Source: Candidatus Buchananbacteria bacterium (GTDB lineage Bacteria; Patescibacteriota; Patescibacteriia; 2-01-FULL-39-33). Taken from it: 64,000 nt of DNA. Location: positions 20,671-84,670 of the forward strand of contig CAIOLF010000046.1 in NCBI GenBank assembly GCA_903859075.1. Direction: 5' to 3'. The notes under the pieces are model-generated. The model did no database searches and was not told the origin of the DNA. It worked only from the letters and a program-made list of their open reading frames with translations. Positions 1,199 through 64,000 of this stretch are shown here, piece after piece. Each line of letters opens with the position of its first letter. Positions within the stretch are counted from its first letter, which is position 1. The position numbers were made by a program, and so were the translations under genes.

Positions 1199-3796
1199 AT
1201 GAAACCAACCATTACTCTCAACCCGTTACTGGCTAACATCAAGCCATTAACCCTGGAAGCTATCCGAGAAAATTCCCTGAATAAAATCTTTAGGGATCTA
1301 AAATCGGGCAAAAACGGATTGACCGACAAGGAGGCCTTCAGGCGCTCCCGTTTCTTCGGACTTAATGAAGTGGCGCATAAGAAAAAAGTGGCGCCTCTCG
1401 TCAAGCTGTTCTCATATTTCAAAAGCCCGCTAATCATTATCCTCTTGGTAGCCGCTTCTATTTCCGGACTGGCCGGGGAATTCAAAAATTTCTTCATTAT
1501 CATGGGCATGGTCTTGCTGGGAGTCATTCTAAACTTTTATCAAGAACACAAATCCAATCAGGCGGCAAATAAAATCGCCCACCAACTGGAGATCCGGGCT
1601 TCCGTCTGGCGTAATAATTCCCAGAAAGAAATCCTCGCCAAATATATCGTGCCGGGAGACGTGCTGCTGCTCTCAGCCGGCGATATCGTGCCGGCCGACG
1701 GCCGCATCATTTCCGCCGACGATTTTTTCGTCAATGAATCGGTCCTGACCGGCGAAAGCTTTCCCGTGGAGAAAAAAGTCGGCGCAGGCAAAACCGCCAC
1801 CCTCCTCTCCGGAACTCATGTTGTTTCCGGCTATTGCTATTTCATCGCCACTAGCACCGGCGGACAGACCGAATACGGCCGGCTGGCGCAAACCATGACG
1901 GAAGCAGAGACGCCGAATGCTTTTGAAAACGGCGTCAAAAATTTCGGCTTCCTAATCATTAAAATCATCATTATTATCGTCCTGCTGATATTCTTAGTCA
2001 GCGCTTTTGAAAGAAGGGACATTGTCGATTCCTTCGTCTTTGCCTTGGCGGTAGCCGTCGGCGTCACGCCGGAACTGCTGCCCATGATCATGAGCGTCAA
2101 TATGGCCAAGGGCTCGGTCAATATGGCTAAAAAAGGCGTTCTGGTGAAACGGCTCAATGCCATTCCTGATTTCGGCAGCATGGACATCCTCTGCACCGAC
2201 AAAACCGGCACGCTTACCGAGGATCGAATTACTTTAATAAAGCATCTGGACGTCTTTGGAGTGGATTCCCTGGCGGTGCTAAGCCAAGCCTACATCAACG
2301 GCTCACTGGAAACGGGAATAAAAAGCATCCTTGATAAAGCCATCTTGGAATTCAAAGATGTCGATATTAAAGGTATTAAAAAAATCGATGAGATCCCTTA
2401 CGACTTTATGCGCAAGCGATCTTCGGTAATTTATGAGAAAAATAAAAAAAGACGGCTGGTCACCAAGGGAGCGCCGGAAGAAATATTCAAAATCTGTACT
2501 GCCTATGAAGCTAAGGGCAAACATAAAAAACTGACGCCAGCAATGCTTAAAAAAATACAGAAGCTTTATGACGATCTCAGCAATGACGGCTTGCGGGTAC
2601 TGGCCATAGCGATCCGGGAAGTCAAAGACAAAAAACGCGTCTATTCCAAAACCGAAGAAAAAGATCTGACGCTGATCGGCTTTGTCGCTTTTTACGATCC
2701 GCCCAAGGCCAGCGCCAAAGAAACCATTACCGCCATGCGTGATTATGGAATCGAAGTAAAAATTCTCACCGGCGACAGCCCGCTGGTGACCAAAAAAATC
2801 TGCTCCGATCTGGGCTTGGACGTCAAAGGCATCTTAGTCGGCGAAGATTTGAATTTTGACAAAATGAATGATGAGACCATCGCCGCCAAAGCGGCGAATA
2901 ATACCATTTTTGCCAGGTTTTCTCCCATCCAAAAAAATCGCATCATCTCCGCGCTCAAAAAAAACGGCTCCGTCGTCGGCTACTTGGGCGATGGCATTAA
3001 TGACGCGCCGTCGCTAAAAAACGCCGACGTCGCCATCTCCGTCAGCAATGCCGTGGACGTGGCCAAAGAAGCGGCCGACATTATCCTAGTCAACAAAGGA
3101 CTGAAAGAATTAATGGAGGGAGTCATTGAAGGACGCAAGACCTTTGGCAATACCATGAAATACCTGATGATGGGGCTGAGCTCCAACTTCGGCAATATGT
3201 TTTCCATGATCGGCGCCGTGATTTATCTGCCTTTTTTTCCGATGCTGCCCGGCCAAATATTGCTCAATAATCTGCTCTACGACACCTCCCAGCTGTCAAT
3301 CCCCACTGACAATGTGGACTTAGAATATCTGCGCAAGCCGCGGCATTGGGATATGAAATTCATCAAATACTTCATGGTTATCTTTGGCCTGATCAGTTCG
3401 GTCTTTGACATTCTGACCTTTGTCTTGCTTTTTGGCTTTTTCGGACTGAGAAATTCCGTCTTTCAATCCGGCTGGTTTATTGAATCGCTGCTGACCCAGA
3501 TCCTGGTCATTTATATCATTCGAACGAAAAAAATACCTTTTTTGCAATCCCGTCCCAGCAAATATTTGCTTGCCACGACACTGCTGATAATTTCTTTTGG
3601 CTTACTGATCATCAGCACTAATATCGGCCACTTCTTCGGCTTTGGCGATCTGCCTTGGATAGCGTTGGTCTATATAATTATTCTTGTTTTAATTTATCTG
3701 TTAATAGTAGAGATAGCCAAGCAAATCTTTTATCGCCTGCTGCATACGCGGGATGATAAAAAAAATATGTTGCCAGTCAAAACCGCCGCAAAATAA
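1199..3796 (+). CDS. mgtA: P-type ATPase, magnesium-transporting MgtA-like (P3B-type cation pump)
   Basis: 865 aa; TGESFPV, phosphorylation motif ICTDKTGTLT, hinge GDGINDAPSLKNADVAISV, 10 predicted TM segments. The N-terminal region and overall layout resemble MgtA/MgtB. Confidence 0.85.
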   Translation: MKPTITLNPLLANIKPLTLEAIRENSLNKIFRDLKSGKNGLTDKEAFRRSRFFGLNEVAHKKKVAPLVKLFSYFKSPLIIILLVAASISGLAGEFKNFFIIMGMVLLGVILNFYQEHKSNQAANKIAHQLEIRASVWRNNSQKEILAKYIVPGDVLLLSAGDIVPADGRIISADDFFVNESVLTGESFPVEKKVGAGKTATLLSGTHVVSGYCYFIATSTGGQTEYGRLAQTMTEAETPNAFENGVKNFGFLIIKIIIIIVLLIFLVSAFERRDIVDSFVFALAVAVGVTPELLPMIMSVNMAKGSVNMAKKGVLVKRLNAIPDFGSMDILCTDKTGTLTEDRITLIKHLDVFGVDSLAVLSQAYINGSLETGIKSILDKAILEFKDVDIKGIKKIDEIPYDFMRKRSSVIYEKNKKRRLVTKGAPEEIFKICTAYEAKGKHKKLTPAMLKKIQKLYDDLSNDGLRVLAIAIREVKDKKRVYSKTEEKDLTLIGFVAFYDPPKASAKETITAMRDYGIEVKILTGDSPLVTKKICSDLGLDVKGILVGEDLNFDKMNDETIAAKAANNTIFARFSPIQKNRIISALKKNGSVVGYLGDGINDAPSLKNADVAISVSNAVDVAKEAADIILVNKGLKELMEGVIEGRKTFGNTMKYLMMGLSSNFGNMFSMIGAVIYLPFFPMLPGQILLNNLLYDTSQLSIPTDNVDLEYLRKPRHWDMKFIKYFMVIFGLISSVFDILTFVLLFGFFGLRNSVFQSGWFIESLLTQILVIYIIRTKKIPFLQSRPSKYLLATTLLIISFGLLIISTNIGHFFGFGDLPWIALVYIIILVLIYLLIVEIAKQIFYRLLHTRDDKKNMLPVKTAAK

Positions 3797-3803
3797 AAAA
3801 AAC

Positions 3804-3836
3804 AGCTTCTCACGAATCGTGAGAAGCTAACATTGG
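3804..3836 (-). terminator. rho-independent terminator for the RlpA-like gene; the hairpin overlaps the last 6 codons and is A-rich upstream, so partly bidirectional
   Basis: Stem agcttctcacg / cgtgagaagct with loop aat, followed on the minus strand by a T8 run. Confidence 0.6.
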
Positions 3837-4262
3837 CAAACTGGCCATTGGCGGCAAACTGGCCCTGGGGCCCGGCCGCTTAGGCAAGACGAGAGCAAAC
3901 ATTGGAGCCACTCCCTTCTTTTTGAGGCCTAGCTGGTCGGCCGCTCCTTCGGAAATATCGAGATCCCTTTCTGGCTTTGACGGACCTCGGTCATTGATCC
4001 TGACCTTGCAAAACCGCCAGGTTGACAGGTCAAGCCAATTTTCCGAGTAAAGCAGAAGTACCTCCGTATCAAACTGCAGCGTGCGGGACGCCGCAGTATA
4101 GCCGGCGGGAAAAAACTCCTCACCGCTGGCTGTCTGGGTCCCCTGCCTGTACCAGCTTACCACTGACACTGGCGGCAGAAGCTTCGAGATTGGCCGCGTA
4201 GCAGCAGTGCCACCTCCGGGCACCAGCTGCGTTATGGCCAACAGCAACACTAGATGCGTCAT
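3810..4262 (-). CDS. RlpA-like double-psi beta-barrel protein (septal ring lytic transglycosylase family), secreted
   Basis: Motifs SWYRQG..TASGE..TAASRTL..VRINDRGP..DLDISEGAADQLGL match RlpA DPBB. The start was moved to the internal ATG at 4262 (MTHLVLLLAITQLV signal peptide), which has GGAGG 7 nt upstream. The 198-aa ORF-track start at 4406 has no RBS. Confidence 0.7.
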   Translation of the reverse strand: MTHLVLLLAITQLVPGGGTAATRPISKLLPPVSVVSWYRQGTQTASGEEFFPAGYTAASRTLQFDTEVLLLYSENWLDLSTWRFCKVRINDRGPSKPERDLDISEGAADQLGLKKKGVAPMFALVLPKRPGPRASLPPMASLPMLASHDS

Positions 4263-4486
4263 CGACTTACCTCCATGCTCGGCCGAGGCCTCAAATATAC
4301 GAAAAAACATCTCTACAAACCTTACCGTGAAGGAATGCTTTTGGGAGTCGTTTTCTACTTCGAAGCCGGCTAAGGAAATTGGCTGAAGTCCGCGACGAGC
4401 GAACAATCAGCAACACTGCAAGCTTACGTAAGGAACGTTATAAATGCTAAAATAACTGCCGTAATTATAAACGATTTTTGGCCTCG

Positions 4487-4514
4487 TGTCAAGATGCAAT
4501 TTATCTGCTATAAT
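4487..4514 (+). promoter_or_regulatory. putative sigma-70 promoter (TGTCAA-16-TATAAT) upstream of the small basic protein gene
   Basis: Hexamers read directly, 30 nt upstream of ATG at 4545. Confidence 0.35.
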
Positions 4515-4544
4515 TAAACTGACTAAATAATAACTTTAAACAAT

Positions 4545-4817
4545 ATGCCTATCTCCAGAAAAACCGCTGCCAAAAAAAGCGCAGCTGGTAAAATGGCCGC
4601 CGAAAAAGCAGCGCCGATCCGCGGCCAGGTTGCCGTCGACGGCTTCAAAAAAATCGGCGATGACTTAGTCGCCGCCCTCAAAGAGGTACGCAGTCGCTAC
4701 CAAAAATTGGACAAAGACACCAAGAAAAAAATCATCACCGGCGTGGCCGGTACGCTGGCGCTTTTAGCCGGCATCCGCGCCGTAAAAAAGATGGCCAAAA
4801 GAAAGAAGAAAAAATAA
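4545..4817 (+). CDS. small lysine/alanine-rich basic protein with a C-terminal hydrophobic segment; function unknown
   Basis: 90-aa ORF followed by a strong terminator; composition AKKSAAGKMAAEKAAP...KRKKKK. Confidence 0.5.
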   Translation: MPISRKTAAKKSAAGKMAAEKAAPIRGQVAVDGFKKIGDDLVAALKEVRSRYQKLDKDTKKKIITGVAGTLALLAGIRAVKKMAKRKKKK

Positions 4818-4835
4818 AGAAAGCAAGTTTCCCAA

Positions 4836-4868
4836 AGACCCTCCTGGTTTCAGGAGGGTCTTTTTTAT
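4836..4868 (+). terminator. rho-independent terminator
   Basis: agaccctcctg-gtttc-caggagggtct followed by TTTTTTATT. Confidence 0.8.
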
Positions 4869-5072
4869 TGCCGTCCAAATAAGCGAATGTCCCTTATTAT
4901 TTAAAAAAATATGCCCCTATCATGGTGCATAATTAGGCCATTTGACCATTTATTTTTAGTATGTTAAAACTATTGCAGTACCTACTAAATCGGTTAGAGA
5001 GCGAGGTTTGAATGACTTCGCATGGCATAGAAGACATAGGAGTAAGTATTGACGGAAAGGAGAGACTGTGTT

Positions 5073-6113
5073 ATGGCAGCTAAGAGCCTAACGGCCATTG
5101 TGAAAAATCCAGCCGAAGCGCCACCATCGCTGCTGACGCCGAGGCAAATCCAAAGCTTCCTGCGACGTCTGGGAACGGACAAAGAGAGACAATTGCAAAC
5201 CTTGGCCAGAATGGCGGAAACCATGCTCGCCAATCAGGTCAAGCAACGGGCGATCTTGGAAGGACGGCGGACCAAGCTGGAAAGAAAACTGACGCAAATC
5301 CGGCTGGGTCTAAGAGAAACCGGGCGTAATGAAAGGAGAATCACCCGGCTCATCAACGGCCAGGCGGCCAAGCCGCCCGAGGCCGAAGTTAAGCCCGCGG
5401 GCAAAGCCAGCCGCAAACCGCCGGTGAAAAAGAAAGTTACGAAACGCAAGATCAAAAAGCGACCGCCAAAAATCCCGCGGACGCGTAAAGCGACGGGAGC
5501 GGGACCGCGAACCGGAAGCAAAAACGAGTCCCTGTTCAATGAGATTGTCCGTCACGGCAGTAAAGGAATCGCTTCCTCTGAGTTGGTGGATTTCGCAGTC
5601 ACGGATGAGACCATCAATCCGAAACACGAGGAACGCTCAGTAGTCGCCACGCGCGTCTTCGCCATGATCCAATCGCTGCGTGAAGCGGAACTGATTGAGA
5701 ACGTCGGTGAAACGCACAAGGCCGTCTGGCGCAGCACGACAACGGCGGAAGCCAAGGCGCCAAAGCCGGACGAGCAAGCCGACGGGCGGAATGTCCGACC
5801 CCCGAAGCAATCGAACTTGGGTGCTCCGCCAGCCCAGAAACCCACCGAATTGCGGGAACTGAGACAGTCCTTCCTCAACGCACTCCTGTGCGGGAAAAAA
5901 AAAGGGCTGATCCTCGACCGGATCGTCAAGGCGGTCAAAGAGTCGGATCACTCCGGCTTTATGACCGCGGACAAAGATGATGATGAGATCCGTATCGAGG
6001 TCGGCCAGTTCTTGCGAATGAACCGCCCAAATTACGCTTGCGACGCCAAGCTTCCAGAGCATTGGTGGGTCAAGGAGGAAGCCCCTTACCCTTTTGCCAA
6101 AGACCGGAAGTAG
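5073..6113 (+). CDS. hypothetical protein with a Lys/Arg-rich central segment (GC-rich, about 60-65% GC)
   Basis: ORF-track start TTG at 5049 replaced by ATG at 5073, which has AAGGAGAG 10 nt upstream. Contains KPPVKKKVTKRKIKKRPPKIPRTRK. No motif recognised. Confidence 0.55.
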   Translation: MAAKSLTAIVKNPAEAPPSLLTPRQIQSFLRRLGTDKERQLQTLARMAETMLANQVKQRAILEGRRTKLERKLTQIRLGLRETGRNERRITRLINGQAAKPPEAEVKPAGKASRKPPVKKKVTKRKIKKRPPKIPRTRKATGAGPRTGSKNESLFNEIVRHGSKGIASSELVDFAVTDETINPKHEERSVVATRVFAMIQSLREAELIENVGETHKAVWRSTTTAEAKAPKPDEQADGRNVRPPKQSNLGAPPAQKPTELRELRQSFLNALLCGKKKGLILDRIVKAVKESDHSGFMTADKDDDEIRIEVGQFLRMNRPNYACDAKLPEHWWVKEEAPYPFAKDRK

Positions 6114-6670
6114 ACCCGCTCCGCCTGATCCGGCCAATAAACGTGGAGCAGGTGCAGCCGCTATTTCCGTTACTGATCAAGCTGTTCGACCATTGGCTTA
6201 CCTTCCAGCAACTGCTAGAAGTAGCCAAGGCCTACGCGCCGGAAGTCGGCTTTGACTTGAGTTCAACTTCGTCGACCCTAATTGACAATGGCTTCCGACT
6301 GGCCATCGCTAAGTACTCTTTATATGAGGACGAGAACGGCATCGTCAAGCCGATGCGCGTTACTGAGAGGCCAACGCCCGCTAAACGTCCGCGCGCGCAA
6401 CAAACCACGATGGAGAAGAATCTCGTAGAAGACGATGATGGCTGGGAGCAAGTTATCCTGGAAACCGTCAAATACGAAGGGCCGATTTCCACCGACGATG
6501 CCAAAGAGCGAATCCGTGATCAAGGCGGGTCCGATTCGTGGCTCATCCCGAAGGATACGGAGGATGGCGAAATCGAGGACAAGGTCGGTGAGGCAATCGA
6601 CCGACTAGATGGCCGAGGTCTGATCGAAACCGATCCTGATGGAGGAGGATGGGTCATTAGAGAACAATAA
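6038..6670 (+). CDS. hypothetical protein with an acidic C-terminus (GC-rich); start uncertain
   Basis: 210-aa ORF overlapping the previous gene by 76 nt in a different frame. The true start may be GTG near 6143, or the pair may be one gene with a frameshift. Confidence 0.4.
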   Translation: MRRQASRALVGQGGSPLPFCQRPEVDPLRLIRPINVEQVQPLFPLLIKLFDHWLTFQQLLEVAKAYAPEVGFDLSSTSSTLIDNGFRLAIAKYSLYEDENGIVKPMRVTERPTPAKRPRAQQTTMEKNLVEDDDGWEQVILETVKYEGPISTDDAKERIRDQGGSDSWLIPKDTEDGEIEDKVGEAIDRLDGRGLIETDPDGGGWVIREQ

Positions 6671-6676
6671 TTATCC

Positions 6677-6745
6677 AGCTCGAAAACGCAAGTTTTTGAG
6701 CTGTTTCTTTTTTTTGCAAAAAAAAGGATCAGCCATAGCCGATCC
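6677..6745. terminator. pair of convergent terminators between 6670 (+) and 6775 (-)
   Basis: cagctcgaaaac-gcaa-gtttttgagctg then a T-run (plus strand). ggatcagccatagccgatcc is followed by a T8 run when read on the minus strand. Confidence 0.55.
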
Positions 6746-9338: not shown

Positions 9339-11330
9339 ATGGCTAAAAATCAAAAATCAGCTTTTAAATACCAGCTTTATTTAGCCGGCGGCATTGGCAT
9401 TTGGAAAGATTTTTTCAAGCCAAAGTATTCAGAATTTTTTAATAAAAAAGTTTATTTATTCGAGCCGGGATCTTTAGGCGGACCCAGTGATCACCGCTTT
9501 ATGCCCATTGGCATTGCCTGCTATGACCTCAATGAAATCAACCACGCTGATGCCTTGCTGGTGTATATGAAAAAGTACCGACCGGCTGACGGGTCGCCGA
9601 CCGGCACTGACAGCACCTGGGAATGCGGCTATGCCATCAGCCAGAGCAAACCAATAATTATGCTGATCGAAGATTTGGATCATTTGGATTATTACAATTT
9701 GCAGTGGATGGTAAGCTTTAGCATTAATGCGGTGCTGACCACTGATGAAAAAGTCGCCGAGACCTGCCGCAATCATCCTAAATTCGTCCACACCACCGTA
9801 TTATATGCTCCTTCAAAAAACCAACTGGAATCTAAAATTATTGAATATCTGACAAACTACTACCGCTCGATTTATTCCCGTTCCGGAATCATTAACTATC
9901 AAGTTGATGAGAGAGCCAGAGATTTATTCGGGGAAAAACGTTTGGCGGAAATGACCTTTACTGAAACAACGGCTGATAAGACTATTTATAAATTATTGAC
10001 TGGGCTAAAACAATGCCGATTTAATAATGACTCCGATTATCTTAAAGTTTGCGAAATAGAAAGAAAAGTTTCCGCTCATCTCCGGAACCGACTAACAGAA
10101 AAAAACATCAACTCAGCTTTAGCCGCCGTAATCAAGCATTGGGCCCCAAAAAAAGAAAATATAGTCAGTATTCTAAAACATTCCATTGTGCCGCCGTTTT
10201 TAAAGATCAAAAATCGACATGCCGGCATCATAAAAACTCGCCCGGAACTATTTTTTGAACTCTATGACCTGGTTAATCATCATCTGATTAGAGAGCAAAA
10301 GTTTATTAAAGATCCAGATTTCCCTTATGAAATGGGAGCAATTATTGAGTTGTATAATTGGATGAATACTTATAGTCTCGATGACACCTTCGATAGCTCT
10401 GATTATCGACAAAACATCCCAACAGTCTGGAAACAATTCGGCCGCCGGAATGCTATTTTTACCGGACTTACCGGGCATTTATTAGCCCTAAAATACTTAT
10501 TTTTAATAGCTCGTCCCAAGCCGCAACTGGCCGAGAGATTGGCGGGAATTTTAAATGATTACAATGAATTAATGTATCAAGGCCAAGTTCTGGATTTGAA
10601 ACTGACTTTTAGTTCCAGCCAAAAGAAAAAACTTTTAAATAAATTGGGACTGCGAGCCATCTGCAAGTTATATATCAAAAGAATTTACGGCATTTGCGGC
10701 GGCTTTTATGAAGCCGTCGGCGAGCTGGCCGCCCAGGCCGGAAATAAAGAAGCCCAGGTTCTTAATGGCAAGCAAATTGATAAAATTTCTCCCTTAATAG
10801 GCTTGTACTATGGCTTGATCCAAATGATCAGAAATGATCTGGCTGATTACTTGGTGATTGAAAAAATTAGCGGCATGAGCCACAGTATGAAGGGCATTTC
10901 GCATTCCGATATTAAAGAAGGCAAAATCGATCTGCCTTACTCCATCGCTTTTTATTCATCGAAACTTGATAAAAAAGAGAAAAGATTTCTCTTTACGGCA
11001 TTAGCCGATAAAGAGCTATCCGCTAAAGATAAGCTTCATATCAATGAACTACTTTGGAAATCAGGAGCCATTGATCTGACTGTTGATTTGATAATTAATT
11101 TGGCCAGTCACGTCAAAACTACCTTGCTGACAGAATACCAAGAAACTCCGACTCGCATGAAATGGATGTTTAGCCTGGTCGACATCACCAAAGAAATTCT
11201 AATTCCCTTTAAGAGTTTGGCCTTAAGCCATGGCTGGGTAAAATATCAATACGACCGTAAACTACTTAGAACAATAAGCGATCTGATATTACAACTGGAA
11301 TCAACTCCTCGCCCAAAAAGAATTAAATAA
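9339..11330 (+). CDS. two-domain fusion protein: N-terminal nucleoside 2-deoxyribosyltransferase/LOG-like Rossmann domain, C-terminal trans-polyprenyl diphosphate synthase-like domain
   Basis: N-terminus YLAGGIG...GTDSTWECGYAISQSKPIIMLIED (NDT-like catalytic Glu context). C-terminus LDDTFDSSDYRQNIPTVWKQFGRRNAIFTGLTGHLLALKYL (FARM-like DDxxD..RRG.PT.H..FG), YQGQVLDL (GQxxDL), GLIQMIRNDLADY (degenerate SARM, NDxxD). Confidence 0.65.
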   Translation: MAKNQKSAFKYQLYLAGGIGIWKDFFKPKYSEFFNKKVYLFEPGSLGGPSDHRFMPIGIACYDLNEINHADALLVYMKKYRPADGSPTGTDSTWECGYAISQSKPIIMLIEDLDHLDYYNLQWMVSFSINAVLTTDEKVAETCRNHPKFVHTTVLYAPSKNQLESKIIEYLTNYYRSIYSRSGIINYQVDERARDLFGEKRLAEMTFTETTADKTIYKLLTGLKQCRFNNDSDYLKVCEIERKVSAHLRNRLTEKNINSALAAVIKHWAPKKENIVSILKHSIVPPFLKIKNRHAGIIKTRPELFFELYDLVNHHLIREQKFIKDPDFPYEMGAIIELYNWMNTYSLDDTFDSSDYRQNIPTVWKQFGRRNAIFTGLTGHLLALKYLFLIARPKPQLAERLAGILNDYNELMYQGQVLDLKLTFSSSQKKKLLNKLGLRAICKLYIKRIYGICGGFYEAVGELAAQAGNKEAQVLNGKQIDKISPLIGLYYGLIQMIRNDLADYLVIEKISGMSHSMKGISHSDIKEGKIDLPYSIAFYSSKLDKKEKRFLFTALADKELSAKDKLHINELLWKSGAIDLTVDLIINLASHVKTTLLTEYQETPTRMKWMFSLVDITKEILIPFKSLALSHGWVKYQYDRKLLRTISDLILQLESTPRPKRIK

Positions 11331-11362: not shown

Positions 11363-11956
11363 TTATTGTTTTCTTTTTATTTCCAGCCAATCCGGTACCG
11401 GAGTAAAAGTAATTTCTTCCAAATGATCTATTTCTTCCTCGGTGACTTCATAATACTTTTGATAAGCCGTTTCCACGCTGCCATGCAGCGCCTCATTCCA
11501 ATCAAAGCCCAGCTTAGCGGCGACCGACCGCACATTTTCTTCCGTCTCCGCCTCAAGCTCCACAAAAGGCGGTATCCACGGCCAGGTGTCAATCGTCACT
11601 TCACAGCCGCTTAGCTCCCACGTTTCGCGCTTAGTCTCCTGATAGGAGCGGCAATCCAGTCCCGTGGCCAAGAGAAAGTCGCAAGCGGCGTCAAAATTAT
11701 CGACATTAAAAACTATTTCCTTCGTCCCCTGAAAAGTCCGGTCAACTAACCGCTTGTAGCTCATCGTAATCTTTTTGCCTTCATCCCGTACTCTGATCCA
11801 GGCGCCGATTTTCTCCAGGCGTTTATCAGAATAATCAAAAATCTTGCGTCGCATCAACACCTCCGCTTGGACTAGAGTCCCGCCATGACTTTTCAGCGCT
11901 TCCCGTAATTGCCGCGGATTAACGTCTAAGAATTTTGCTTCAACTTCAGTCTTCAT
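11363..11956 (-). CDS. CYTH-domain protein (triphosphate tunnel metalloenzyme family)
   Basis: 197 aa; N-terminal EVEAKF (ExExK signature), size and acidic-residue pattern typical of CYTH. Confidence 0.75.
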   Translation of the reverse strand: MKTEVEAKFLDVNPRQLREALKSHGGTLVQAEVLMRRKIFDYSDKRLEKIGAWIRVRDEGKKITMSYKRLVDRTFQGTKEIVFNVDNFDAACDFLLATGLDCRSYQETKRETWELSGCEVTIDTWPWIPPFVELEAETEENVRSVAAKLGFDWNEALHGSVETAYQKYYEVTEEEIDHLEEITFTPVPDWLEIKRKQ

Positions 11957-11958
11957 AG

Positions 11959-12822
11959 TTACTTTAGAATAATTTTTATTAATAAATCATTAATAAAATC
12001 AAAATCACCATCGCCGGTAATTACCGCATCAAACTTTTCTCTGTAAAGCTGCAGATTTTCTTCAATATTCTTATTTAAAAATCCGACCTTAATCAGATTA
12101 TCATAATTAAAACCGGTAATCATCTCCACGTCGTCCGAACCGTCGCCGAGTAGCAAGACATTTTTTCTTTCCTTGACCTTATCATAAAAAGAAAAATTGT
12201 CCAGCACGGTTTCTTCCTTATTAAAGGCATGAATAATCGGCTCCCTGACGGCAATTGCTCGACCGGCATCGTCCCAAATGAATTCATTAGAGACAATATA
12301 AACATTATCTGAAAGCAAATTCTGCCGCTTAAGATACAAAGAAATCGACTCTACTCCTAAACCGCTGGAAGACATAATCACCAAAGGAATGTCGCGCTCT
12401 CTTAAAAACTCAAAAAACTGCGCCACTCCCGAACGTAGCTGCAATCTTTGCGAGGTGATGGCTCGCTCAACATCTTTTTTCCGCAGGCCGGAAGCGATCA
12501 GCAGATCAAAATGCCTGGACCACCACTGCCGCATGGCCTCACGCTTTTCCGCGTGAGGCACTGACGGATCAATCTCGATCGCGTGATAATAATTGAACAA
12601 TTCTTTGGCTTTATCCGGATAGTCGGGCGTCAGATAGCCCTCGCTGCGCAAGACGGAGATTATTGAAGGCACTTCCTCCCCCGCCACAAACATCTTGGTA
12701 AGCGTACGATCAAAATCCGACAGAACGTGGAGTTTTTCCGCTCCGCCGATACTAATCGCTCTTTTAATCGACTCCAGACGCTGAGAATTAGAAATAATAA
12801 TATCTCCGGTCATATTAATCAT
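11959..12822 (-). CDS. HAD-superfamily pyrimidine 5'-nucleotidase-like protein (UMPH-1/cN-III family)
   Basis: 287 aa; motif I VLSDFDRTLTK, later LLLGDGSDD. Three bp downstream of the CYTH gene, so in an operon. Confidence 0.7.
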   Translation of the reverse strand: MINMTGDIIISNSQRLESIKRAISIGGAEKLHVLSDFDRTLTKMFVAGEEVPSIISVLRSEGYLTPDYPDKAKELFNYYHAIEIDPSVPHAEKREAMRQWWSRHFDLLIASGLRKKDVERAITSQRLQLRSGVAQFFEFLRERDIPLVIMSSSGLGVESISLYLKRQNLLSDNVYIVSNEFIWDDAGRAIAVREPIIHAFNKEETVLDNFSFYDKVKERKNVLLLGDGSDDVEMITGFNYDNLIKVGFLNKNIEENLQLYREKFDAVITGDGDFDFINDLLIKIILK

Positions 12823-12830
12823 TAATTAAA

Positions 12831-13349
12831 TTAGGATTTAATAATTTTTAAATCGCTGACATCCAGACTGCCGCGATACAAAATGTGAGCCACGCCGTGA
12901 AAGGGCAGGACTTTTTGTCCCGCACTGACGGCCTTGGCATAATAGTCCGTGGCGTTCTCCGACAGTTCGGCCAGATCGGCGACTAACTTTGGATCAAACG
13001 GCTTGAATTCATCGGGCTCAATTTTATTGTCTTCCCGCCGATAAAGATAAATCACCGCCCGGTGGCTATCAATGATTTCTAAAGGGACTTCAAAAAAGTT
13101 TTCCCGGAAAGGATGGCCGAGCTTGAGCAAGGCCTCCTTGATTTTTGTCGGATGAACCGCGCTGAAATGCAGTACGTCATTCCAAAGGCAATTAAGGAAA
13201 GGGATGATTTCTTGCAATAGATATTCCCGGCCCTGATATTTTTTTACTGCCGCTTCATAGATCTCCGGGTTAATCTTTTCCATGACATTTAGCGGATAGA
13301 GGATATTGCCCGACATATTGGTCGGGACTTTATGATAAATAAAAGCCAT
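12831..13349 (-). CDS. hypothetical protein, first gene of the nucleotidase/CYTH operon
   Basis: 172-aa ORF, 8 bp upstream of the nucleotidase gene. No motif recognised. Confidence 0.55.
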   Translation of the reverse strand: MAFIYHKVPTNMSGNILYPLNVMEKINPEIYEAAVKKYQGREYLLQEIIPFLNCLWNDVLHFSAVHPTKIKEALLKLGHPFRENFFEVPLEIIDSHRAVIYLYRREDNKIEPDEFKPFDPKLVADLAELSENATDYYAKAVSAGQKVLPFHGVAHILYRGSLDVSDLKIIKS

Positions 13350-13431
13350 ATTTTTTGTGATTATCTGCCCTAATTATAGCTCAATCGGCCCGGCCAGACA
13401 AGCTGAAAAGAAAAGACCGCCAAACGCGAAG

Positions 13432-14163
13432 TCAGCGGTCCAGGAAAAATGCCAGCAAGGCGACGACCAGCAGTATCATCAGATTATCGTCGAGGTAAAA
13501 CCTGGAGAGCTGATGCGCTACCGGACTGGGAAAACAGCGCCGAAGCCGCGAAGTAAGCGGTCTGCACCAGCCGACCCAGCTCGGAGTGTAGGTCTCTGCC
13601 AGTGCGACGGTTACGCTGATGATAAAGATGTTGGCAGCATCTAATCGGCTGCCCAGGAATGCTGCTACTCGGCTCATGACCAAATAACTGACCAAAGCGA
13701 ATACCAGCAATCCCAAGCCGCGGGAGCTGTTGACGCCCCAGCGCGACAGACGATAACGCGCCCAAGCGGCGGCCGGATCTGCCAGGCCTAGAACCATCAC
13801 GGCCATCACCAGGATTGATTCTTTGATGGGCCCCAACCAGACGCCGGTCATCAGTAAGGAGGCTCCCAGCAAATAGTAGGTGCTGGCGGTAAACCTCTGA
13901 TGTTCATGCTCACGCAGAATAAACCGGAATATTGACATCTTGATAAACCGCTCATTGTGGCGCGGGCTTTGATGCCGGACCAAGTCCATCAGCAAAAACA
14001 CTGCCGTCATCATCCAGGCGATGCCGGTGAGCATTGCCAAGGGATTAGCCGGCATCCCGCAGATGTCCCTAAGTCCCCGCCACCAGTAAAAGACGGCGAG
14101 CATTAGAAGACATCCCGAGATATGCCAGATCTTTCGGATCCAGTTGAACTCGTAGATAACCAA
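13432..14163 (-). CDS. integral membrane protein, polyprenol (dolichol/phytol) kinase-like CTP-transferase family
   Basis: 243 aa, 6-7 TM helices. GLADPAAAWARYRLSRWG resembles the G(D)GLAD..GR.(F)G motif of Sec59/VTE5-type kinases. TTG start with AAGGAGGA upstream. Confidence 0.45.
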   Translation of the reverse strand: MVIYEFNWIRKIWHISGCLLMLAVFYWWRGLRDICGMPANPLAMLTGIAWMMTAVFLLMDLVRHQSPRHNERFIKMSIFRFILREHEHQRFTASTYYLLGASLLMTGVWLGPIKESILVMAVMVLGLADPAAAWARYRLSRWGVNSSRGLGLLVFALVSYLVMSRVAAFLGSRLDAANIFIISVTVALAETYTPSWVGWCRPLTSRLRRCFPSPVAHQLSRFYLDDNLMILLVVALLAFFLDR

Positions 14164-14286
14164 GGTGCTATCCTCCTTCTTTTACTGAGTTTGCTTCACT
14201 CTGCCAGTTTCTCTACTTCGGATTATAGACCAAAGGATATTAATTTTCAACTGTGATCAAATAAGCTTATTTTAACAGCTATATTA

Positions 14287-15519
14287 TTAACAGACAAAGG
14301 TCAGCGCTTTGCCCATTTGGTCGCCACGGCCGGTCCGGCCGATGCGATGGACATAATCGTCATAGGTAGCCGGGACATCATAATTAATCACGTGGCTGAC
14401 GTTGGGAATATCCAGGCCTCTGGCGGCGACATCGGTCGCTACCAGAATTTTGGTTTTATTCTCTTTAAATAATCTTAAGGCCGCTTGGCGCTTGCTTTGG
14501 TTCTTGTTGCCATGAATGGCGTCCGCTTTAAAGCCCTTTTGAATCAGACCAACGGATAATCTCTCCACGCCGAATTTGGTCCGGCCGAAAACCAACACTT
14601 TGGTGAATTCCGGCTTGGCCAAAAGATTATGCAGGACGCTTATTTTTTCGTGCTCGTGGCTGATTTTGATAATGTCCTGATCGACATTCTTGGCAGTGTC
14701 TCCGGTCTTGACGGAAATCGTCACCGGGCTGGTTAAAAATTCTTTGACTAGCTTATCAATTTCCCGGCTGACGGTAGCGGAGAAAAATAAGGTCTGGCGA
14801 GTAACCGGCATCAGCGACATGATAAATCTCATATCATTGACAAAGCCCATATCCAGCATGCGGTCGGCTTCGTCAAGCACTAAAGTGGAAAATCTTTCCG
14901 GACGGATCAAGCCGCGCTCGATCAGATCCTTGAGCCGGCCCGGCGTGCCAATGACAAAATTATAGCCGCGGCGCAAATCGGAAATCTGGCGGCCGATGGA
15001 AGCGCCGCCGACGCAGCAGACGGAAAAAATCCTCAATCGTCCGCGGAACGCAATCAATTCTTGATTGATCTGATCAGCCAATTCATGAGTCGGTACGATG
15101 ATTAAAATATTTTCCCGGTTATCCAATATGACTTTATGAAGCAATGGCAAAAGAAAAGCCGCCGTTTTGCCGGTGCCGGTATTGGCAACACCGACCACAT
15201 CGCACCCCTCCAGAATCGCCGGAATCGTCTGGTCTTGGATCGGGGTGGGAGTGACATAACCTTTGGTGACAATATTTTCTTTCAATCTTTGATCAATAGC
15301 AAAATCAGCGAAAGCATGTTGCGGCTGATAGGGCTTGGATTCGGTTTGGGGCTTGGCTTTGCAGACAAACCGGGAGCAATCAATATATTGATCGCGAAAA
15401 CCGCCGCGTCTGGCAAGCGGTCTTTTTCCTCCAAAAGACGGCCGGCCGCTTGAAGCGGCTAAGCGGCGTCTAGGAGAACGGCCGAGGCGAGAGCCCCGTC
15501 CGAAATTCCTGGTAGACAT
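14287..15519 (-). CDS. DEAD-box ATP-dependent RNA helicase
   Basis: 410 aa; Q-motif region, GTGKTAAF (motif I), VLDEADRMLDMGF (DEAD box), SAT, HRIGRTGRG (motif VI). Unusual RG-rich N-terminal extension. Confidence 0.9.
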   Translation of the reverse strand: MSTRNFGRGSRLGRSPRRRLAASSGRPSFGGKRPLARRGGFRDQYIDCSRFVCKAKPQTESKPYQPQHAFADFAIDQRLKENIVTKGYVTPTPIQDQTIPAILEGCDVVGVANTGTGKTAAFLLPLLHKVILDNRENILIIVPTHELADQINQELIAFRGRLRIFSVCCVGGASIGRQISDLRRGYNFVIGTPGRLKDLIERGLIRPERFSTLVLDEADRMLDMGFVNDMRFIMSLMPVTRQTLFFSATVSREIDKLVKEFLTSPVTISVKTGDTAKNVDQDIIKISHEHEKISVLHNLLAKPEFTKVLVFGRTKFGVERLSVGLIQKGFKADAIHGNKNQSKRQAALRLFKENKTKILVATDVAARGLDIPNVSHVINYDVPATYDDYVHRIGRTGRGDQMGKALTFVC

Positions 15520-15755
15520 GAGTTAGGTTTTAATTTTTAGCTTTAAAGCAGACAGGCCACCGGCCATTCATAAATTTCCATCAAAGCTAAATAATTAAAG
15601 CTAGAGTTAAGAAATGCCTGAATTGGGATTTCTTAAAATGGAACTAAATGAGATATACTTTAAGAACTTAAGTATAGCACGCATTAATGTTTTTGTCAAT
15701 TTAAAAACCTCCGCCGGGAGATTTTTGTATTAAATTGACTCAATTGGGCGGCTAT

Positions 15756-16842
15756 TTAAAACAGGTTTGAATTTACCAGCAGTTGCGTTTTCTGGACGCT
15801 GTTCTGATAAATTAGGCGGCTGGCAGCGGAGATAAACGGCCGATTGACAATTTTTTCATTATTTTGAAGATAGTCCAGCATTTTTTGCGGCGTCTTTTTC
15901 AGGATGTTCATCATGGAGTTGAAACTGGCGGCAGAATACATAGAAGTGAAGTCCAAATCATTAAACAGGCCAAGGATTTTGTTTTTATGATAAAGTTGAT
16001 GATCATTGAAAGCCCAATTGTCATGGATGGCGATATAATTAGAAATCTTGTTAGCCAAGCGCTTCGGGTAATTCACTTGCCTTAAAATCTTTTTAGCGAT
16101 TTGTTTGCCGGCTTGCATATGGCTTTTTCTGGAATCGCTGGCAAAGGGACTGTCTATCTTAGCCGCGCTATAACCCACGTCATGCAGCAGGATAAACGGA
16201 ATAAAAATCTGTTCCTCAATATTTTCCTGCTTGGCCAGCAGCAAGCTCTGCTTAATGAGCCATTCAATATGTTTTTCCGTATAGTCCTGTCCCTGATGAT
16301 TGTATCTTTTAGCTAAACGCCAAATCTTGTTATAAATTTCCGGCATAGGGTAGCTCTGCCAATCATGGGAAAAAGTATCTTCGGCATTCTCCAGATAATT
16401 ATTTTCATAAATAAGCTTTTGCCATTTATCAATAATATTTTGGTCAAAAATGTTGCCGATCATTACCTCGCAGCAGACATCATCCTTATCTTCCGGCATA
16501 ATAACCTGGCCATCCGGATTAATCATAAAATAAGCATTGGCTCTCTGGCGCCTGGGGGAGATAATAATATTTATCTGCCGGCCATAGGCGGCCATAATCT
16601 TTTCCGACTCGGCCAAAAAAGTTTTTTCATCAATTAATAATTTTTTTGATATCCGATCGCAGTAGCGGCTCACCGCCGGTAATAGTGATGGATTTGACTC
16701 CCTTCTTTGCCAGCAAAGAAAAAACTTTTTGCAGTTGTGAAAAATCCAATTCCGGAATATTCTTGGGGCCATAGCAAAAATCGCAATCCTTGGTGCAACG
16801 GGAGGTAACGCGGAAAGTGACGATTTCCGGGAAATGGTCCAT
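15756..16842 (-). pseudogene. radical-SAM (CX3CX2C) / HD-domain protein interrupted by a single-base frameshift in an A7 run; either a pseudogene or a homopolymer sequencing error
   Basis: ORF 16630-16842 (RCTKDCDFCYG, GGEPLL) stops after DIKKIIN. Removing one A from aaaaaaa at 16641-16647 reads DIKKLLIDEKTFLAE and continues into ORF 15756-16772, which carries an HD motif (H..IPFILLHDVGY, later H and D). Confidence 0.55.
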
Positions 16843-24145: not shown

Positions 24146-24212
24146 GGGATATTTTTTGTTTTTGTACTCATTTATCCTAACAATTAATCTAGGTATAATA
24201 AGTACCAAAATG

Positions 24213-24287
24213 GGTGAGTGACCGGGGTTGAACCGGCAACCGCTCGGACCACAACCGAGTGCTCTAACCAATTGAGCTACACTCACC
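24213..24287 (-). tRNA. tRNA-His (anticodon GTG), with encoded G-1; CCA not encoded
   Basis: Sense sequence GGTGAGTGTAGCTCAATTGGTTAGAGCACTCGGTTGTGGTCCGAGCGGTTGCCGGTTCAACCCCGGTCACTCACC folded by hand: 8-bp acceptor including G-1:C73, anticodon loop TTGTGGT. Confidence 0.85.
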
Positions 24288-24291
24288 ATAA

Positions 24292-24363
24292 TGCTCCCAC
24301 CAGGACTCGAACCTGGATTTTAGGTTCCGGAAACCCATGTTCTATCCCTTGAACTATAGGAGC
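24292..24363 (-). tRNA. tRNA-Arg (anticodon CCG)
   Basis: Sense GCTCCTATAGTTCAAGGGATAGAACATGGGTTTCCGGAACCTAAAATCCAGGTTCGAGTCCTGGTGGGAGCA: cloverleaf folded by hand, T-loop TTCGAGT, anticodon loop TTCCGGA. Confidence 0.8.
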
Positions 24364-24407
24364 TGAATTGTTTTATCAAAATAGATTAGTTCAATTCCTA
24401 TCTTGAC

Positions 24408-24482
24408 TGGTGTCCCCGCTAGGAGTCGAACCTAGATCCAGAGCTTAGAAGGCTCTTGTTCTATCCGTTGAACTACGGGGAC
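24408..24482 (-). tRNA. tRNA-Arg (anticodon TCT), CCA encoded
   Basis: Sense GTCCCCGTAGTTCAACGGATAGAACAAGAGCCTTCTAAGCTCTGGATCTAGGTTCGACTCCTAGCGGGGACACCA; anticodon loop CTTCTAA. Confidence 0.85.
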
Positions 24483-29419: not shown

Positions 29420-29851
29420 TTATCCGGCCGTGCCCCCGGCAGCTGTCTTGCCAATCTGAGCGATTACGAAAGAGGTAATGGCATAAGCCATAAAAATAAT
29501 CACAATGGCGACAACGCCCTGAATGATGGTCTTTCTGGCTTTGGTAATTTTAGTTTCATCGCCTTGAGCCATCATCCACATGAATCCGGCGTAAATAACG
29601 ATGAGCACGAACACAACGCCGAGCAGTCCCAGTAAGACCCCAACCACATTGCCGATGGTCTTCGGCAGATTGGCGCCCTCACCGCCTAATTGCTGAAGTC
29701 CAGTGGCCGTAAGATTTCCTTCTATATTGGTCACAATATCGGCCGAGGCCGGATGTACCAGGCCTAGCCCCAAAACCGGCACGGCCAGGAACATAACCAC
29801 CATCAGAAAAGAAAATAGATGTTTTCTCTTTTCCTTTAATAATTTTTTCAT
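29420..29851 (-). CDS. TrbC/VirB2-like (T4SS-type) pilin family small membrane protein, paralog 5 of 5
   Basis: 143 aa; N-terminal signal/TM, conserved C-terminal block IYAGFMWMMAQGDETKITKARKTIIQGVVAIVIIFMAYAITSFV shared with neighbours. Confidence 0.6.
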   Translation of the reverse strand: MKKLLKEKRKHLFSFLMVVMFLAVPVLGLGLVHPASADIVTNIEGNLTATGLQQLGGEGANLPKTIGNVVGVLLGLLGVVFVLIVIYAGFMWMMAQGDETKITKARKTIIQGVVAIVIIFMAYAITSFVIAQIGKTAAGGTAG

Positions 29852-29953
29852 AGCTTTTTAGTTAATTTTATATTAATTATTTATTTTTACTTTCAATCAC
29901 TTAGGCGGACTGCCGCCTAAGCCATGAAAACAATCTATCTAAACTAGAAGATT

Positions 29954-30364
29954 CTATCTGAACTTGAAAATATTGACCACAAACGACGTAATACCATAAG
30001 AAAGCATGACAATAATAAACCCAGTGAGTGCCGTAATGATTATATTGCGAGCTGATTTTATTTTTGTCTCGTCGCCGCGAGCCAGCATCCACATTACTCC
30101 GGCATAAATCGTCAAGACCAGAAAAAGAACTCCGATACCGGCCAGCACTGTTTTAATCACATTGCCGACAAAACTCGGCAGACTGGTCGATCTATCCAGA
30201 CCGGTGCCGGCGACCGCTCTCCTCAGTCCGGAAATCGGATTTACCGTGTCCGCGGCATAAACGGCGGTAAAACAAAAAATCCCTACAAGCAGAAAAAACA
30301 GCAAGGTGCTCAAAAAACGATAATTGATTTTATTTTTCCAAAGCATTTTTCTGGGTTTAATCAA
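29954..30364 (-). CDS. TrbC/VirB2-like pilin family small membrane protein, paralog 4
   Basis: 136 aa; IYAGVMWMLARGDETKIKSARNIIITALTGFIIVMLSYGITSFV. Confidence 0.6.
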   Translation of the reverse strand: MIKPRKMLWKNKINYRFLSTLLFFLLVGIFCFTAVYAADTVNPISGLRRAVAGTGLDRSTSLPSFVGNVIKTVLAGIGVLFLVLTIYAGVMWMLARGDETKIKSARNIIITALTGFIIVMLSYGITSFVVNIFKFR

Positions 30365-30403
30365 GGGGGGCGTAAAAACGCCCCCTTTGTTAAATTATAT
30401 TTA

Positions 30404-31292: not shown

Positions 31293-31299
31293 AGAATAA

Positions 31300-33824: not shown

Positions 33825-33844
33825 AACGACGGGGATACCTCCCT

Positions 33845-33890: not shown

Positions 33891-33910
33891 AGGGAGGTAT
33901 CCCCGTCGTT

Positions 33911-34300: not shown

Positions 34301-34475
34301 GCCTATTTCTCCTTGATTTGACTTACACTACAGCCGCCTGTACTGAGCGACCAAAAATTAGTATACAAGGCGACTTTATTTTTGTCAAGGAGATATTTTT
34401 TATTATACGCGTAAATATGCTATAATAAAATTAATGAATTGCTGAGGCCAGGCACGATCATTTAGGGCATTTTTT

Positions 34476-34520
34476 ATAATTTAAGACATTATAATTTAAG
34501 ACATTATAATTTAAGACATT
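34476..34520. repeat. mirror copy of the 3 x 15-bp tandem repeat
   Basis: Reverse complement of 33215-33259. Confidence 0.85.
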
Positions 34521-43252: not shown

Positions 43253-43327
43253 GTCCCCGTAGTTCAACGGATAGAACAAGAGCCTTCTAAGCTCTGGATC
43301 TAGGTTCGACTCCTAGCGGGGACACCA
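43253..43327 (+). tRNA. mirror copy: tRNA-Arg (TCT)
   Basis: Reverse complement of 24408-24482. Confidence 0.85.
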
Positions 43328-43371
43328 GTCAAGATAGGAATTGAACTAATCTATTTTGATAAAACAATTCA

Positions 43372-43443
43372 GCTCCTATAGTTCAAGGGATAGAACATGG
43401 GTTTCCGGAACCTAAAATCCAGGTTCGAGTCCTGGTGGGAGCA
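43372..43443 (+). tRNA. mirror copy: tRNA-Arg (CCG)
   Basis: Reverse complement of 24292-24363. Confidence 0.8.
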
Positions 43444-43447
43444 TTAT

Positions 43448-43522
43448 GGTGAGTGTAGCTCAATTGGTTAGAGCACTCGGTTGTGGTCCGAGCGGTTGCC
43501 GGTTCAACCCCGGTCACTCACC
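43448..43522 (+). tRNA. mirror copy: tRNA-His (GTG)
   Basis: Reverse complement of 24213-24287. Confidence 0.85.
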
Positions 43523-43589
43523 CATTTTGGTACTTATTATACCTAGATTAATTGTTAGGATAAATGAGTACAAAAACAAAAAATATCCC

Positions 43590-63190: not shown

Positions 63191-63472
63191 ATTGTTTAAA
63201 GTTATTATTTAGTCAGTTTAATTATAGCAGATAAATTGCATCTTGACACGAGGCCAAAAATCGTTTATAATTACGGCAGTTATTTTAGCATTTATAACGT
63301 TCCTTACGTAAGCTTGCAGTGTTGCTGATTGTTCGCTCGTCGCGGACTTCAGCCAATTTCCTTAGCCGGCTTCGAAGTAGAAAACGACTCCCAAAAGCAT
63401 TCCTTCACGGTAAGGTTTGTAGAGATGTTTTTTCGTATATTTGAGGCCTCGGCCGAGCATGGAGGTAAGTCG

Positions 63473-63925
63473 ATGACGCATCTAGTGTTGCTGTTGGCCA
63501 TAACGCAGCTGGTGCCCGGAGGTGGCACTGCTGCTACGCGGCCAATCTCGAAGCTTCTGCCGCCAGTGTCAGTGGTAAGCTGGTACAGGCAGGGGACCCA
63601 GACAGCCAGCGGTGAGGAGTTTTTTCCCGCCGGCTATACTGCGGCGTCCCGCACGCTGCAGTTTGATACGGAGGTACTTCTGCTTTACTCGGAAAATTGG
63701 CTTGACCTGTCAACCTGGCGGTTTTGCAAGGTCAGGATCAATGACCGAGGTCCGTCAAAGCCAGAAAGGGATCTCGATATTTCCGAAGGAGCGGCCGACC
63801 AGCTAGGCCTCAAAAAGAAGGGAGTGGCTCCAATGTTTGCTCTCGTCTTGCCTAAGCGGCCGGGCCCCAGGGCCAGTTTGCCGCCAATGGCCAGTTTGCC
63901 AATGTTAGCTTCTCACGATTCGTGA
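63473..63925 (+). CDS. mirror copy of 3810-4262: RlpA-like DPBB protein
   Basis: Identical protein. Confidence 0.7.
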   Translation: MTHLVLLLAITQLVPGGGTAATRPISKLLPPVSVVSWYRQGTQTASGEEFFPAGYTAASRTLQFDTEVLLLYSENWLDLSTWRFCKVRINDRGPSKPERDLDISEGAADQLGLKKKGVAPMFALVLPKRPGPRASLPPMASLPMLASHDS

Positions 63926-63938
63926 GAAGCTGTTTTTT

Positions 63939-64000
63939 TTATTTTGCGGCGGTTTTGACTGGCAACATATTTTTTTTATCATCCCGCGTATGCAGCAGGC
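63939..64000 (-). CDS. mgtA: 3'-terminal 62 nt of the mirrored MgtA-type ATPase copy (gene continues beyond the right window edge)
   Basis: Reverse complement of 3735-3796, encoding the ...LLHTRDDKKNMLPVKTAAK C-terminus and stop. Confidence 0.5.
   Translation of the reverse strand, partial: LLHTRDDKKNMLPVKTAAK

Follow-up and report, generated by a model that had tools for sequence, protein, structure and literature searches.

How does a bacterial contig come to carry a long sequence that is followed, with nothing in between, by its own reverse complement? The window analysed here, a stretch of 64,000 nucleotides taken as a whole, raises this question: positions 3735-33867 (the left arm, forward strand) are the exact reverse complement of positions 33868-64000 (the right arm, reverse strand). 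A base-by-base comparison of each position x with 67735-x returned 0 mismatches over 30,133 pairs, from which it follows that the palindrome has neither indels nor a spacer and that its axis lies at 33867|33868, just as an earlier note on this DNA had claimed. That note was also right that tRNAs and ORFs recur in mirror image, since a trio of tRNA genes at 24212-24482 on the reverse strand returns at 43253-43523, and the translations of mirrored ORFs are identical between the arms. An exact mirror of 30,133 pairs cannot have arisen by chance. The answer I will argue for, judging from the sequence, is that the 60-kb palindrome is very probably a technical fold-back and not biology, with the left arm taken as genuine, an ordinary segment of a Patescibacteria chromosome, and the right arm an exact copy that would be an artefact and adds no independent information.

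The arm length of 30.1 kb stands as the lower bound that the earlier note had stated, but position 3735, which it gave as the limit of the repeat, is simply the partner of the last base of the window (64000); the left limit falls there because the window end cuts the mirror, and it is not a repeat boundary. By the same arithmetic (67735-x), positions 1-3734 on the forward strand, which hold an HSP20 gene and the larger part of a P-type ATPase gene (Pfam), seem unique because their mirror would fall beyond 64000. Such a mirror may be present past the window end, and the true start of the left arm is probably at or before window base 1. The sole long contig encoding these proteins measures 109,074 bp, an even number, and this fits a palindrome spanning the whole contig, since such a palindrome requires an even size. 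An even size would also turn up by luck 50% of the time.

In its predicted gene content the arm is ordinary Patescibacteria chromosome, and it is syntenic with Patescibacteria MAGs. A 472-aa ABC-transporter substrate-binding protein (SBP_bac_1; 31793-33211, reverse strand) provided the anchor for finding relatives and other contigs; in distant relatives, at 40-57% identity, contigs of 320-860 kb carry the SBP-pilin locus at an internal position, and the scan of GTDB genomes with this protein, from which the phylum was recognized, yielded no close genome, the best relatives reaching at most 57% identity. Searches of the arm ORFs against Pfam, NCBIfam and PHROGs, covering 34 kb of the genome, found no telomere resolvase (ResT, TelN, TelK, TelA) and no phage or plasmid families, and megablast with 25 kb of the arm returned a tRNA-His match only from phages and zero matches from plasmids.

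What lies at the axis itself is more informative. The axis falls inside the 4-nt loop of an 11-bp-stem hairpin at 33855-33880 (forward strand), which begins 31 nt 3' of the stop codon of a 129-aa gene, the distance from that stop codon to the axis being 43 nt. The stem AAGGTTCGGAC (33855-33865), the loop TTAA (33866-33869) and the returning stem GTCCGAACCTT (33870-33880) together form a perfect palindrome of 26 nt in the window strain, limits that are set by the point where two contigs of a close strain diverge from the window and that would give its native size in the source strain. These two contigs, L081 (ENA, with a k141_ name) and L082 (JGI), represent this locus in a strain ~99% identical to that of the window (10 substitutions in ~1.3 kb), and their alignment to the window stops exactly at 33880, the end of the stem. 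Past this point L081 continues for 180 nt and L082 for 225 nt of unrelated, non-mirrored sequence starting CTTCTTTTTT (in L082 the flank opens CTTCTTCTTTTTTATAAAAAATTTGATATTTAAATC...), a native continuation with which the right arm past 33880 conflicts. Sequence leaving 33867 for non-mirrored DNA was what the earlier note had named as speaking against the biological readings, and it is seen here in two contigs of another strain than the source rather than in reads of the source sample. L081 and L082 do not differ from each other (100% identity) and may therefore come from a single population, or even from the same sample. At its opposite end L081 is chimeric.

In L081 the hairpin (1791-1816) has a stem of 11 pairs, a 4-nt loop and the tail CTTCTTTTTT, and it folds at -17.7 kcal/mol (z = -5.9), with 0 of 200 shuffles folding equally well. 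A T-run directly after the stem marks the hairpin as an intrinsic terminator, and the native axis element, a GC-containing stem-loop plus T-run 3' of a stop codon, is accordingly read from its sequence as the predicted terminator of the 129-aa gene. It resembles Rho-independent terminators in its GC-containing 11-bp stem, 4-nt loop and T-rich tail, while the window departs from them in having the mirrored left flank (TTTTGTGTCAT...) in place of that tail. A single base in the loop also separates the strains, because at 33866 the window reads TTAA, which is palindromic, and L081 and L082 read CTAA, which is not. An Rfam match to MIR7994 at the axis fell under the gathering score and reflects the long artificial hairpin.

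The native right flank is AT-rich and then hairpin-rich over the 225 nt covered. L081 and L082 both stop less than 230 nt right of the stem, and two sibling ENA assemblies (ERZ1426812 and ERZ1426843) break before the axis, at about 33766 and 33290, which indicates that this neighbourhood is hard to assemble. A JGI scan with the hairpin pattern gave no contig besides L082, and a scan of viral contigs gave no match. Nothing supports reading the right flank as a dispersed repeat, because Rfam returned no family for it that would account for the assembly breaks, and in the window its 13-nt inverted-repeat arm is no commoner than expected by chance. A 79-aa ORF in the flank is of low complexity and apparently non-coding.

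How, then, would one strand have been written twice? The real chromosome would run from the 129-aa gene through the terminator hairpin at 33855-33880 into a different flank, and the recorded sequence would reverse in the terminator loop and retrace its own reverse complement, in which case the mirrored arm would be absent from the organism. The most likely route, clearly ahead of a chimera formed at the bench, is that the assembler itself created a palindromic unitig, and this event would most likely have taken place in the source assembly itself. A C-to-T change in the loop would have made the hairpin a perfect 26-nt palindrome in the source strain, so that for k up to 27 some k-mer would have a self-complementary (k-1)-suffix; were the k-mers of the true right flank then lost, either through low coverage or because a short dead end was clipped off as a tip, the incoming path could be continued only by its reverse complement, and the assembler would output a palindromic unitig that multi-k assemblers would pass on to later k. 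A missing or clipped right flank is needed for this route because, given good coverage, the hairpin should be resolved by reads of more than 27 nt.

A toy doubled de Bruijn graph, built on sequence from 33300 onward and leaving out a 15-nt tandem repeat at 33215-33261, behaved in this manner: with the TTAA loop and no right flank it produced a perfectly palindromic unitig, including the 120-nt junction of the window, at k = 21, 23, 25 and 27, and none at k >= 29, and with the CTAA loop it produced none at any tested k. Palindromic unitigs have been treated in theory and are emitted whole by SPAdes and MEGAHIT (Rahman & Medvedev 2022, PMC9528984), and palindromes spanning whole contigs have been reported as artefacts in SPAdes assemblies (PMC9455707) and in single-cell assemblies (bioRxiv 10.1101/2023.06.06.543983). 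The window resembles such contigs in that its halves mirror each other exactly without a spacer, with the axis on a short self-complementary string, and in that each duplicated gene has an identical second copy, which inflates the number of paralogues; it differs in the unusual length of its arms, at least 30 kb each, and in having a seed that can be traced to one natural terminator with one SNP in its loop. Identical, spacer-less arms fit one path written twice and would be unexpected for evolved duplicates. Three features by which a fold-back artefact would be recognized are found here, namely exact arms without spacer or divergence, an axis palindrome (26 nt) at least as long as k-1 for common small k, and the same locus running elsewhere, in L081 and L082, into non-mirrored DNA.

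The earlier note had also put a technical fold-back first, and the non-mirrored continuation in L081 and L082 together with the exact identity of the arms bears this out, although the MDA or long-read routes that it had in mind are not favoured over a small-k assembler unitig once the toy graph and the published theory (PMC9528984) are considered. Within the technical reading, a fold-back at the bench is a possible but clearly less probable origin: a single-stranded 3' end in the terminator hairpin would have snapped back and extended itself, during phi29 MDA or end repair, or else a long read would have gone round the fold-back, and the assembler would have built the resulting palindrome faithfully. 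More than 85% of MDA chimeras are inverted, are primed by stretches of 2-21 complementary nt and usually have the sequence in between deleted (Lasken & Stockwell 2007, PMC1855051), and the join in the window is likewise inverted and sits at 11 nt of complementarity, the stem of the axis hairpin falling within that range; MDA-amplified single-cell assemblies, moreover, have been reported to contain palindromic contigs (bioRxiv 10.1101/2023.06.06.543983). The typical deletion, however, is missing here, the gap being the 4-nt loop only, and the known chimeras occur in single reads. Two arms with zero differences over 30 kb would be unusual in a long-read consensus, nothing indicates that amplified DNA was sequenced, and snapping back would be equally possible with CTAA, whereas dependence on TTAA is specific to the graph route.

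That the palindrome is real, either as a hairpin-capped chromosome end or as an inverted duplication, at least 60 kb long, newly formed in vivo by a fold-back that the C-to-T loop change seeded, is highly unlikely, and the biological readings remain improbable even when they are pooled. Hairpin telomeres and replicated telomere junctions are known with Borrelia ResT, phage N15 TelN and Agrobacterium TelA, and sequencing round a closed end of this kind, or through a dimer junction that has not been resolved, generates a perfect palindrome without a spacer. The axis could therefore be the covalently closed telomere or head-to-head dimer junction of a linear replicon of this type, which the earlier note had offered as a biological alternative, and every contig available for this locus does end within ~230 nt right of the hairpin; but this is the least probable of all the readings weighed here and found no support. 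The ~99% identical strain runs 180-225 nt past the hairpin into non-mirrored sequence, so that the site is internal and no physical end there, and the SBP-pilin locus lies inside 320-860 kb contigs even in relatives at 40-57% identity. The natural palindrome spans merely 22-26 nt, directly after a stop codon and followed by a T-run, as befits a terminator, and this 26-nt stem-loop contrasts with a resolvase target of ~50 bp. Resolvase, phage and plasmid families are likewise missing among the arm ORFs, and at the DNA level the phage and plasmid matches amount to one tRNA.

Only marginally less improbable is a very recent inverted duplication in vivo, in which a break near the terminator hairpin would have led to intrastrand fold-back and, after replication, to a giant palindrome. 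Short inverted repeats do seed palindromes in vivo, the TTAA loop of the source would supply a perfectly palindromic seed, and zero divergence is compatible with a very recent event. Nevertheless, a palindrome that spans 60 kb or more without a spacer would be highly unstable and would have had to dominate the population in order to be assembled; in a genome measuring ~1 Mb it would also have deleted or displaced everything to the terminator's right, and the same structure is documented as assembler output that needs no biology. The comparison with L081 and L082 is weaker against a rearrangement specific to the source strain, since these contigs come from a different one. If true, the palindrome would be a first for CPR bacteria, and no evidence here points that way.

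Taking the technical fold-back as the reading to act upon, the value of this locus is practical rather than biological, as it exposes a quality-control problem. A phantom copy would make up about 30 kb of the window and perhaps half of a public contig of 109 kb. It would present each gene, tRNA and regulatory site twice and would bias estimates of genome size, completeness and contamination as well as the number of paralogues and analyses of repeats and synteny. The earlier note was correct in warning that the arms are not independent and that the unique information amounts to ~34 kb; the right arm being an exact copy, only positions 1-33867 are to be treated and counted as unique sequence. 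The locus also provides a clean worked example of how a change of one base in a loop can yield a perfect palindrome on which a de Bruijn assembler can fold a contig back upon itself, and the screen is a simple one, to compare each contig with its own reverse complement and cut at the axis.

The 129-aa gene beside the axis (33435-33824, forward strand; mirror copy at 33911-34300, reverse strand) is itself an orphan. Its protein had no Pfam, NCBIfam or PHROG matches and an exact look-up gave no match, and its cluster holds only 3 members among 5.8 billion proteins. At 57% GC the gene stands out against the 45% of the arm, and 5' of it lies a promoter-like site, TTGACA and TATACT separated by 17 nt, which was found on L081 (1283-1311), placed in the window at 33347-33375 (forward strand) through a constant offset, and also read in the window sequence.

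The record does contain the palindrome: when each position x from 3735 to 33867 was compared directly with 67735 - x, none of the 30,133 pairs was mismatched, and there are therefore no indels, no spacer and an axis at 33867|33868, as the earlier note had described. The mirroring it reported for tRNAs and ORFs was also seen, with the tRNA-His/Arg/Arg trio at 24212-24482 (-) recurring at 43253-43523 (+) and the ORFs near the axis having identical translations in both arms, and, the right arm being an exact reverse complement, its figure of about 34 kb of unique sequence stands. Its arm length of at least 30.1 kb holds as a lower bound, but 3735 does not hold as the limit of the repeat, because that position pairs with the final base of the window; window 1-3734 may be mirrored too, outside the window. 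Rfam in E-value mode also placed a plant microRNA precursor, MIR7994, on both strands at 33822-33913, a spurious hit that scores 76.9 bits against a gathering threshold of 100 and is produced by the long artificial hairpin.

As biology, the palindrome is almost certainly not real; most likely the assembler folded some 34 kb of Patescibacteria chromosome back on itself at a natural terminator hairpin. The gene that immediately precedes the axis (33435-33824; promoter-like site TTGACA-17-TATACT at 33347-33375) is an orphan with 57% GC against 45% for the unique arm; its 129-aa product matches nothing in Pfam, NCBIfam or PHROG and falls in a cluster that, out of 5.8 billion sequences, holds just three near-identical members, namely the window's own (NCBI/ENA contig of 109,074 bp), P0002 on ENA contig k141_856419 (1,996 bp; locus L081) and P0003 on JGI contig Ga0209777_10212074 (1,549 bp; locus L082). 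Past the stop codon of this gene the window reads AACGACGGGGATACCTCCCTTATGACACAAAAGGTTCGGACTT|AAGTCCGAACCTTTTGTG..., whereas L081 and L082, the same locus in a close strain and 98.0% identical to the window over 1.3 kb (10 substitutions and one 15-nt repeat unit differ), cease to align exactly at 33880, 13 nt beyond the axis, and run on for 180 and 225 nt, starting CTTCTTTTTTATAAAAAATTTGATATTTAAATC..., with no mirrored part and no occurrence of this sequence elsewhere in the window. Their native element, AAGGTTCGGAC-CTAA-GTCCGAACCTT with a T-rich tail after it, was scored by a terminator scan (11-pair stem, 4-nt loop) and folds at -17.7 kcal/mol (0 of 200 shuffles fold as well); the window axis therefore lies inside the loop of the 129-aa gene's intrinsic terminator (33855-33880). 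The chromosome of this very close strain evidently carries on past the terminator, and the non-mirrored sequence that the earlier note had named as refuting biological readings is thus found, in assemblies of another strain rather than in reads of the source sample. L081 and L082 are 100% identical across 1,482 nt and may therefore stem from one population or even from two assemblies of one sample. The neighbourhood of the axis is demonstrably hard to assemble, because two sibling ENA assemblies break near it (at about 33766 and 33290) and L081 and L082 both terminate at a second inverted repeat, <230 nt right of the terminator stem.

At position 33866 the window opens its loop as TTAA, whereas L081 and L082 have CTAA. 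TTAA is self-complementary, so that stem and loop together form a 26-nt perfect palindrome; the CTAA loop leaves no long k-mer common to both strands. A k-mer whose (k-1)-suffix is its own reverse complement produces an inverted self-loop; in a doubled de Bruijn graph the outcome is a palindromic maximal unitig, and such unitigs are emitted whole by SPAdes and MEGAHIT (Rahman and Medvedev, PMC9528984). In a toy doubled graph of window 33300-33854, the hairpin and the L082 right flank, the TTAA loop with right-flank k-mers missing gave as maximal unitig a perfect palindrome at k = 21, 23, 25 and 27, including the window's 120-nt junction, and no fold-back at k >= 29; with the right flank included, the path at k <= 27 halted at a branch or merge, and CTAA gave a fold-back at none of the tested k. 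Both SPAdes and MEGAHIT usually start at k = 21, reuse the contigs of lower-k rounds at higher k and remove short dead-end tips. In the source strain, the TTAA loop would make the terminator hairpin a 26-nt palindrome, which with missing right-flank k-mers would give a palindromic unitig at k <= 27, and this would carry into the higher-k rounds; I infer that this sequence of events took place in the source assembly.

Judged from sequence comparison, then, the palindrome is very probably a technical artefact, and the technical fold-back that the earlier note had put foremost is strengthened by the close-strain read-through past 33880, the axis in the terminator loop and the graph that reproduces the junction; its favoured route, MDA or a long read, gives way to the assembler. 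A wet-lab fold-back (a phi29 MDA product, snap-back synthesis or a fold-back long read) takes up the smaller part of that technical probability and is itself rather unlikely: it would likewise centre on the hairpin, and the 11-nt stem falls within the 2-21 nt of priming complementarity of MDA chimeras, but these mostly carry intervening deletions (PMC1855051), a perfect TTAA loop is unnecessary for snap-back, and there is no indication of sample amplification. An inverted duplication that truly arose in vivo, and very recently, could have been seeded at the same hairpin but is highly improbable, as a palindrome of 60 kb or more, unstable as it is, would have to dominate the population and the rest of the small chromosome would be displaced. 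Least probable of all is a hairpin telomere or dimer junction at the axis, a suggestion of the earlier note that is made less likely by the close strain reading through, by the axis element being built as a terminator, by the lack of a resolvase in the window (that family is absent from every family scan of window ORFs) and by relatives having the locus inside their contigs.

For the assembler-made fold-back there is precedent, in that contigs palindromic over their full length have been described as errors of assembly, 81 of them in SPAdes assemblies of M. bovis (PMC9455707) and others in single-cell assemblies (bioRxiv 10.1101/2023.06.06.543983). The sole long contig with the window's proteins has 109,074 bp, an even number, as a whole-contig palindrome requires, which is suggestive only; were the entire contig palindromic, the computed positions would be 54,537 for the axis and 20,671 for the first window base. 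The palindrome matters chiefly for quality control, and the usable sequence is window 1-33867, or strictly 1-33880, so as to keep the native 3' side of the terminator stem.

Ordinary chromosomal DNA makes up the unique arm, which encodes HSP20, a P-type ATPase, a NUDIX hydrolase, a cyclopropane-fatty-acid-synthase-like methyltransferase, a DEAD-box helicase, peptidase S51, PAPS reductase, a PLP enzyme, a radical-SAM protein, a bacterial PGI, the three tRNAs, and a 472-aa ABC-transporter substrate-binding protein (SBP; 31793-33211, -) with small TrbC/T4SS-pilin-like genes in a row after it. Nothing in its sequence suggests a phage or plasmid origin; megablast of 25 kb of the arm gave only a tRNA match to phage DNA and no match to plasmid DNA, and arm ORFs lacking an assignment had no PHROG or NCBIfam family. 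Among the best 80 of 98 SBP relatives from a scan covering each GTDB species by one genome, titles that give a taxon are mostly Patescibacteria (Buchanan-, Falkow-, Uhr-, Komeilibacteria and similar), many of the remainder are titled "uncultured Gammaproteobacteria", and the closest relative in the scan is 57% identical. The gene order SBP, pilin paralogues, 539-aa membrane protein and PGI is conserved in relatives, where the SBP locus is internal in contigs of up to 716,806 and 860,445 bp. Five small TrbC/VirB2-like (T4SS_pilin) paralogues lie directly downstream of the SBP (29420-31779), and the array is kept across Patescibacteria relatives (loci L010, at 11844-16164, L012 and L054), some with about 10 paralogues.

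Elsewhere in the arm, a 663-aa protein (9339-11330) joins a polyprenyl synthetase domain to a weak N-terminal nucleoside 2-deoxyribosyltransferase-like match, an unusual fusion, and a UMPH-1-type pyrimidine 5'-nucleotidase (E = 6.5e-64), of a family best known from eukaryotes, adjoins a CYTH-domain protein (11363-12822). A GC-rich block at 4400-6700 (51-57% GC; AT skew +0.25 in 4001-6000) holds overlapping long putative ORFs on both strands (5049-6113, 6038-6670) that match no family. In the MEGAHIT contig L081, nt 1-514 are unrelated AT-rich sequence joined in frame within the SBP gene, the contig matching window SBP residues 1-216 exactly with the switch at a shared AATAATATTATTATCC string; the contig is either chimeric or carries a recombinant SBP at its far end. 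The 225 nt known of the native right flank matched no Rfam family; the second inverted repeat there (L082 1499-1547) is a strong one, GGGCGGGCAAAAA / TTTTTGCCCGCCC, with a 13-bp stem, a 23-nt G-rich loop and an arm motif without enrichment in the window. Between the divergent SBP and 129-aa genes there is a perfect 15-nt tandem repeat, AATGTCTTAAATTAT x3.1 (33215-33261; mirror 34474-34520), which has one unit fewer in the L081 and L082 strain and is therefore polymorphic in copy number, and some 30 nt right of this repeat, near 33290, a sibling ENA contig breaks off.
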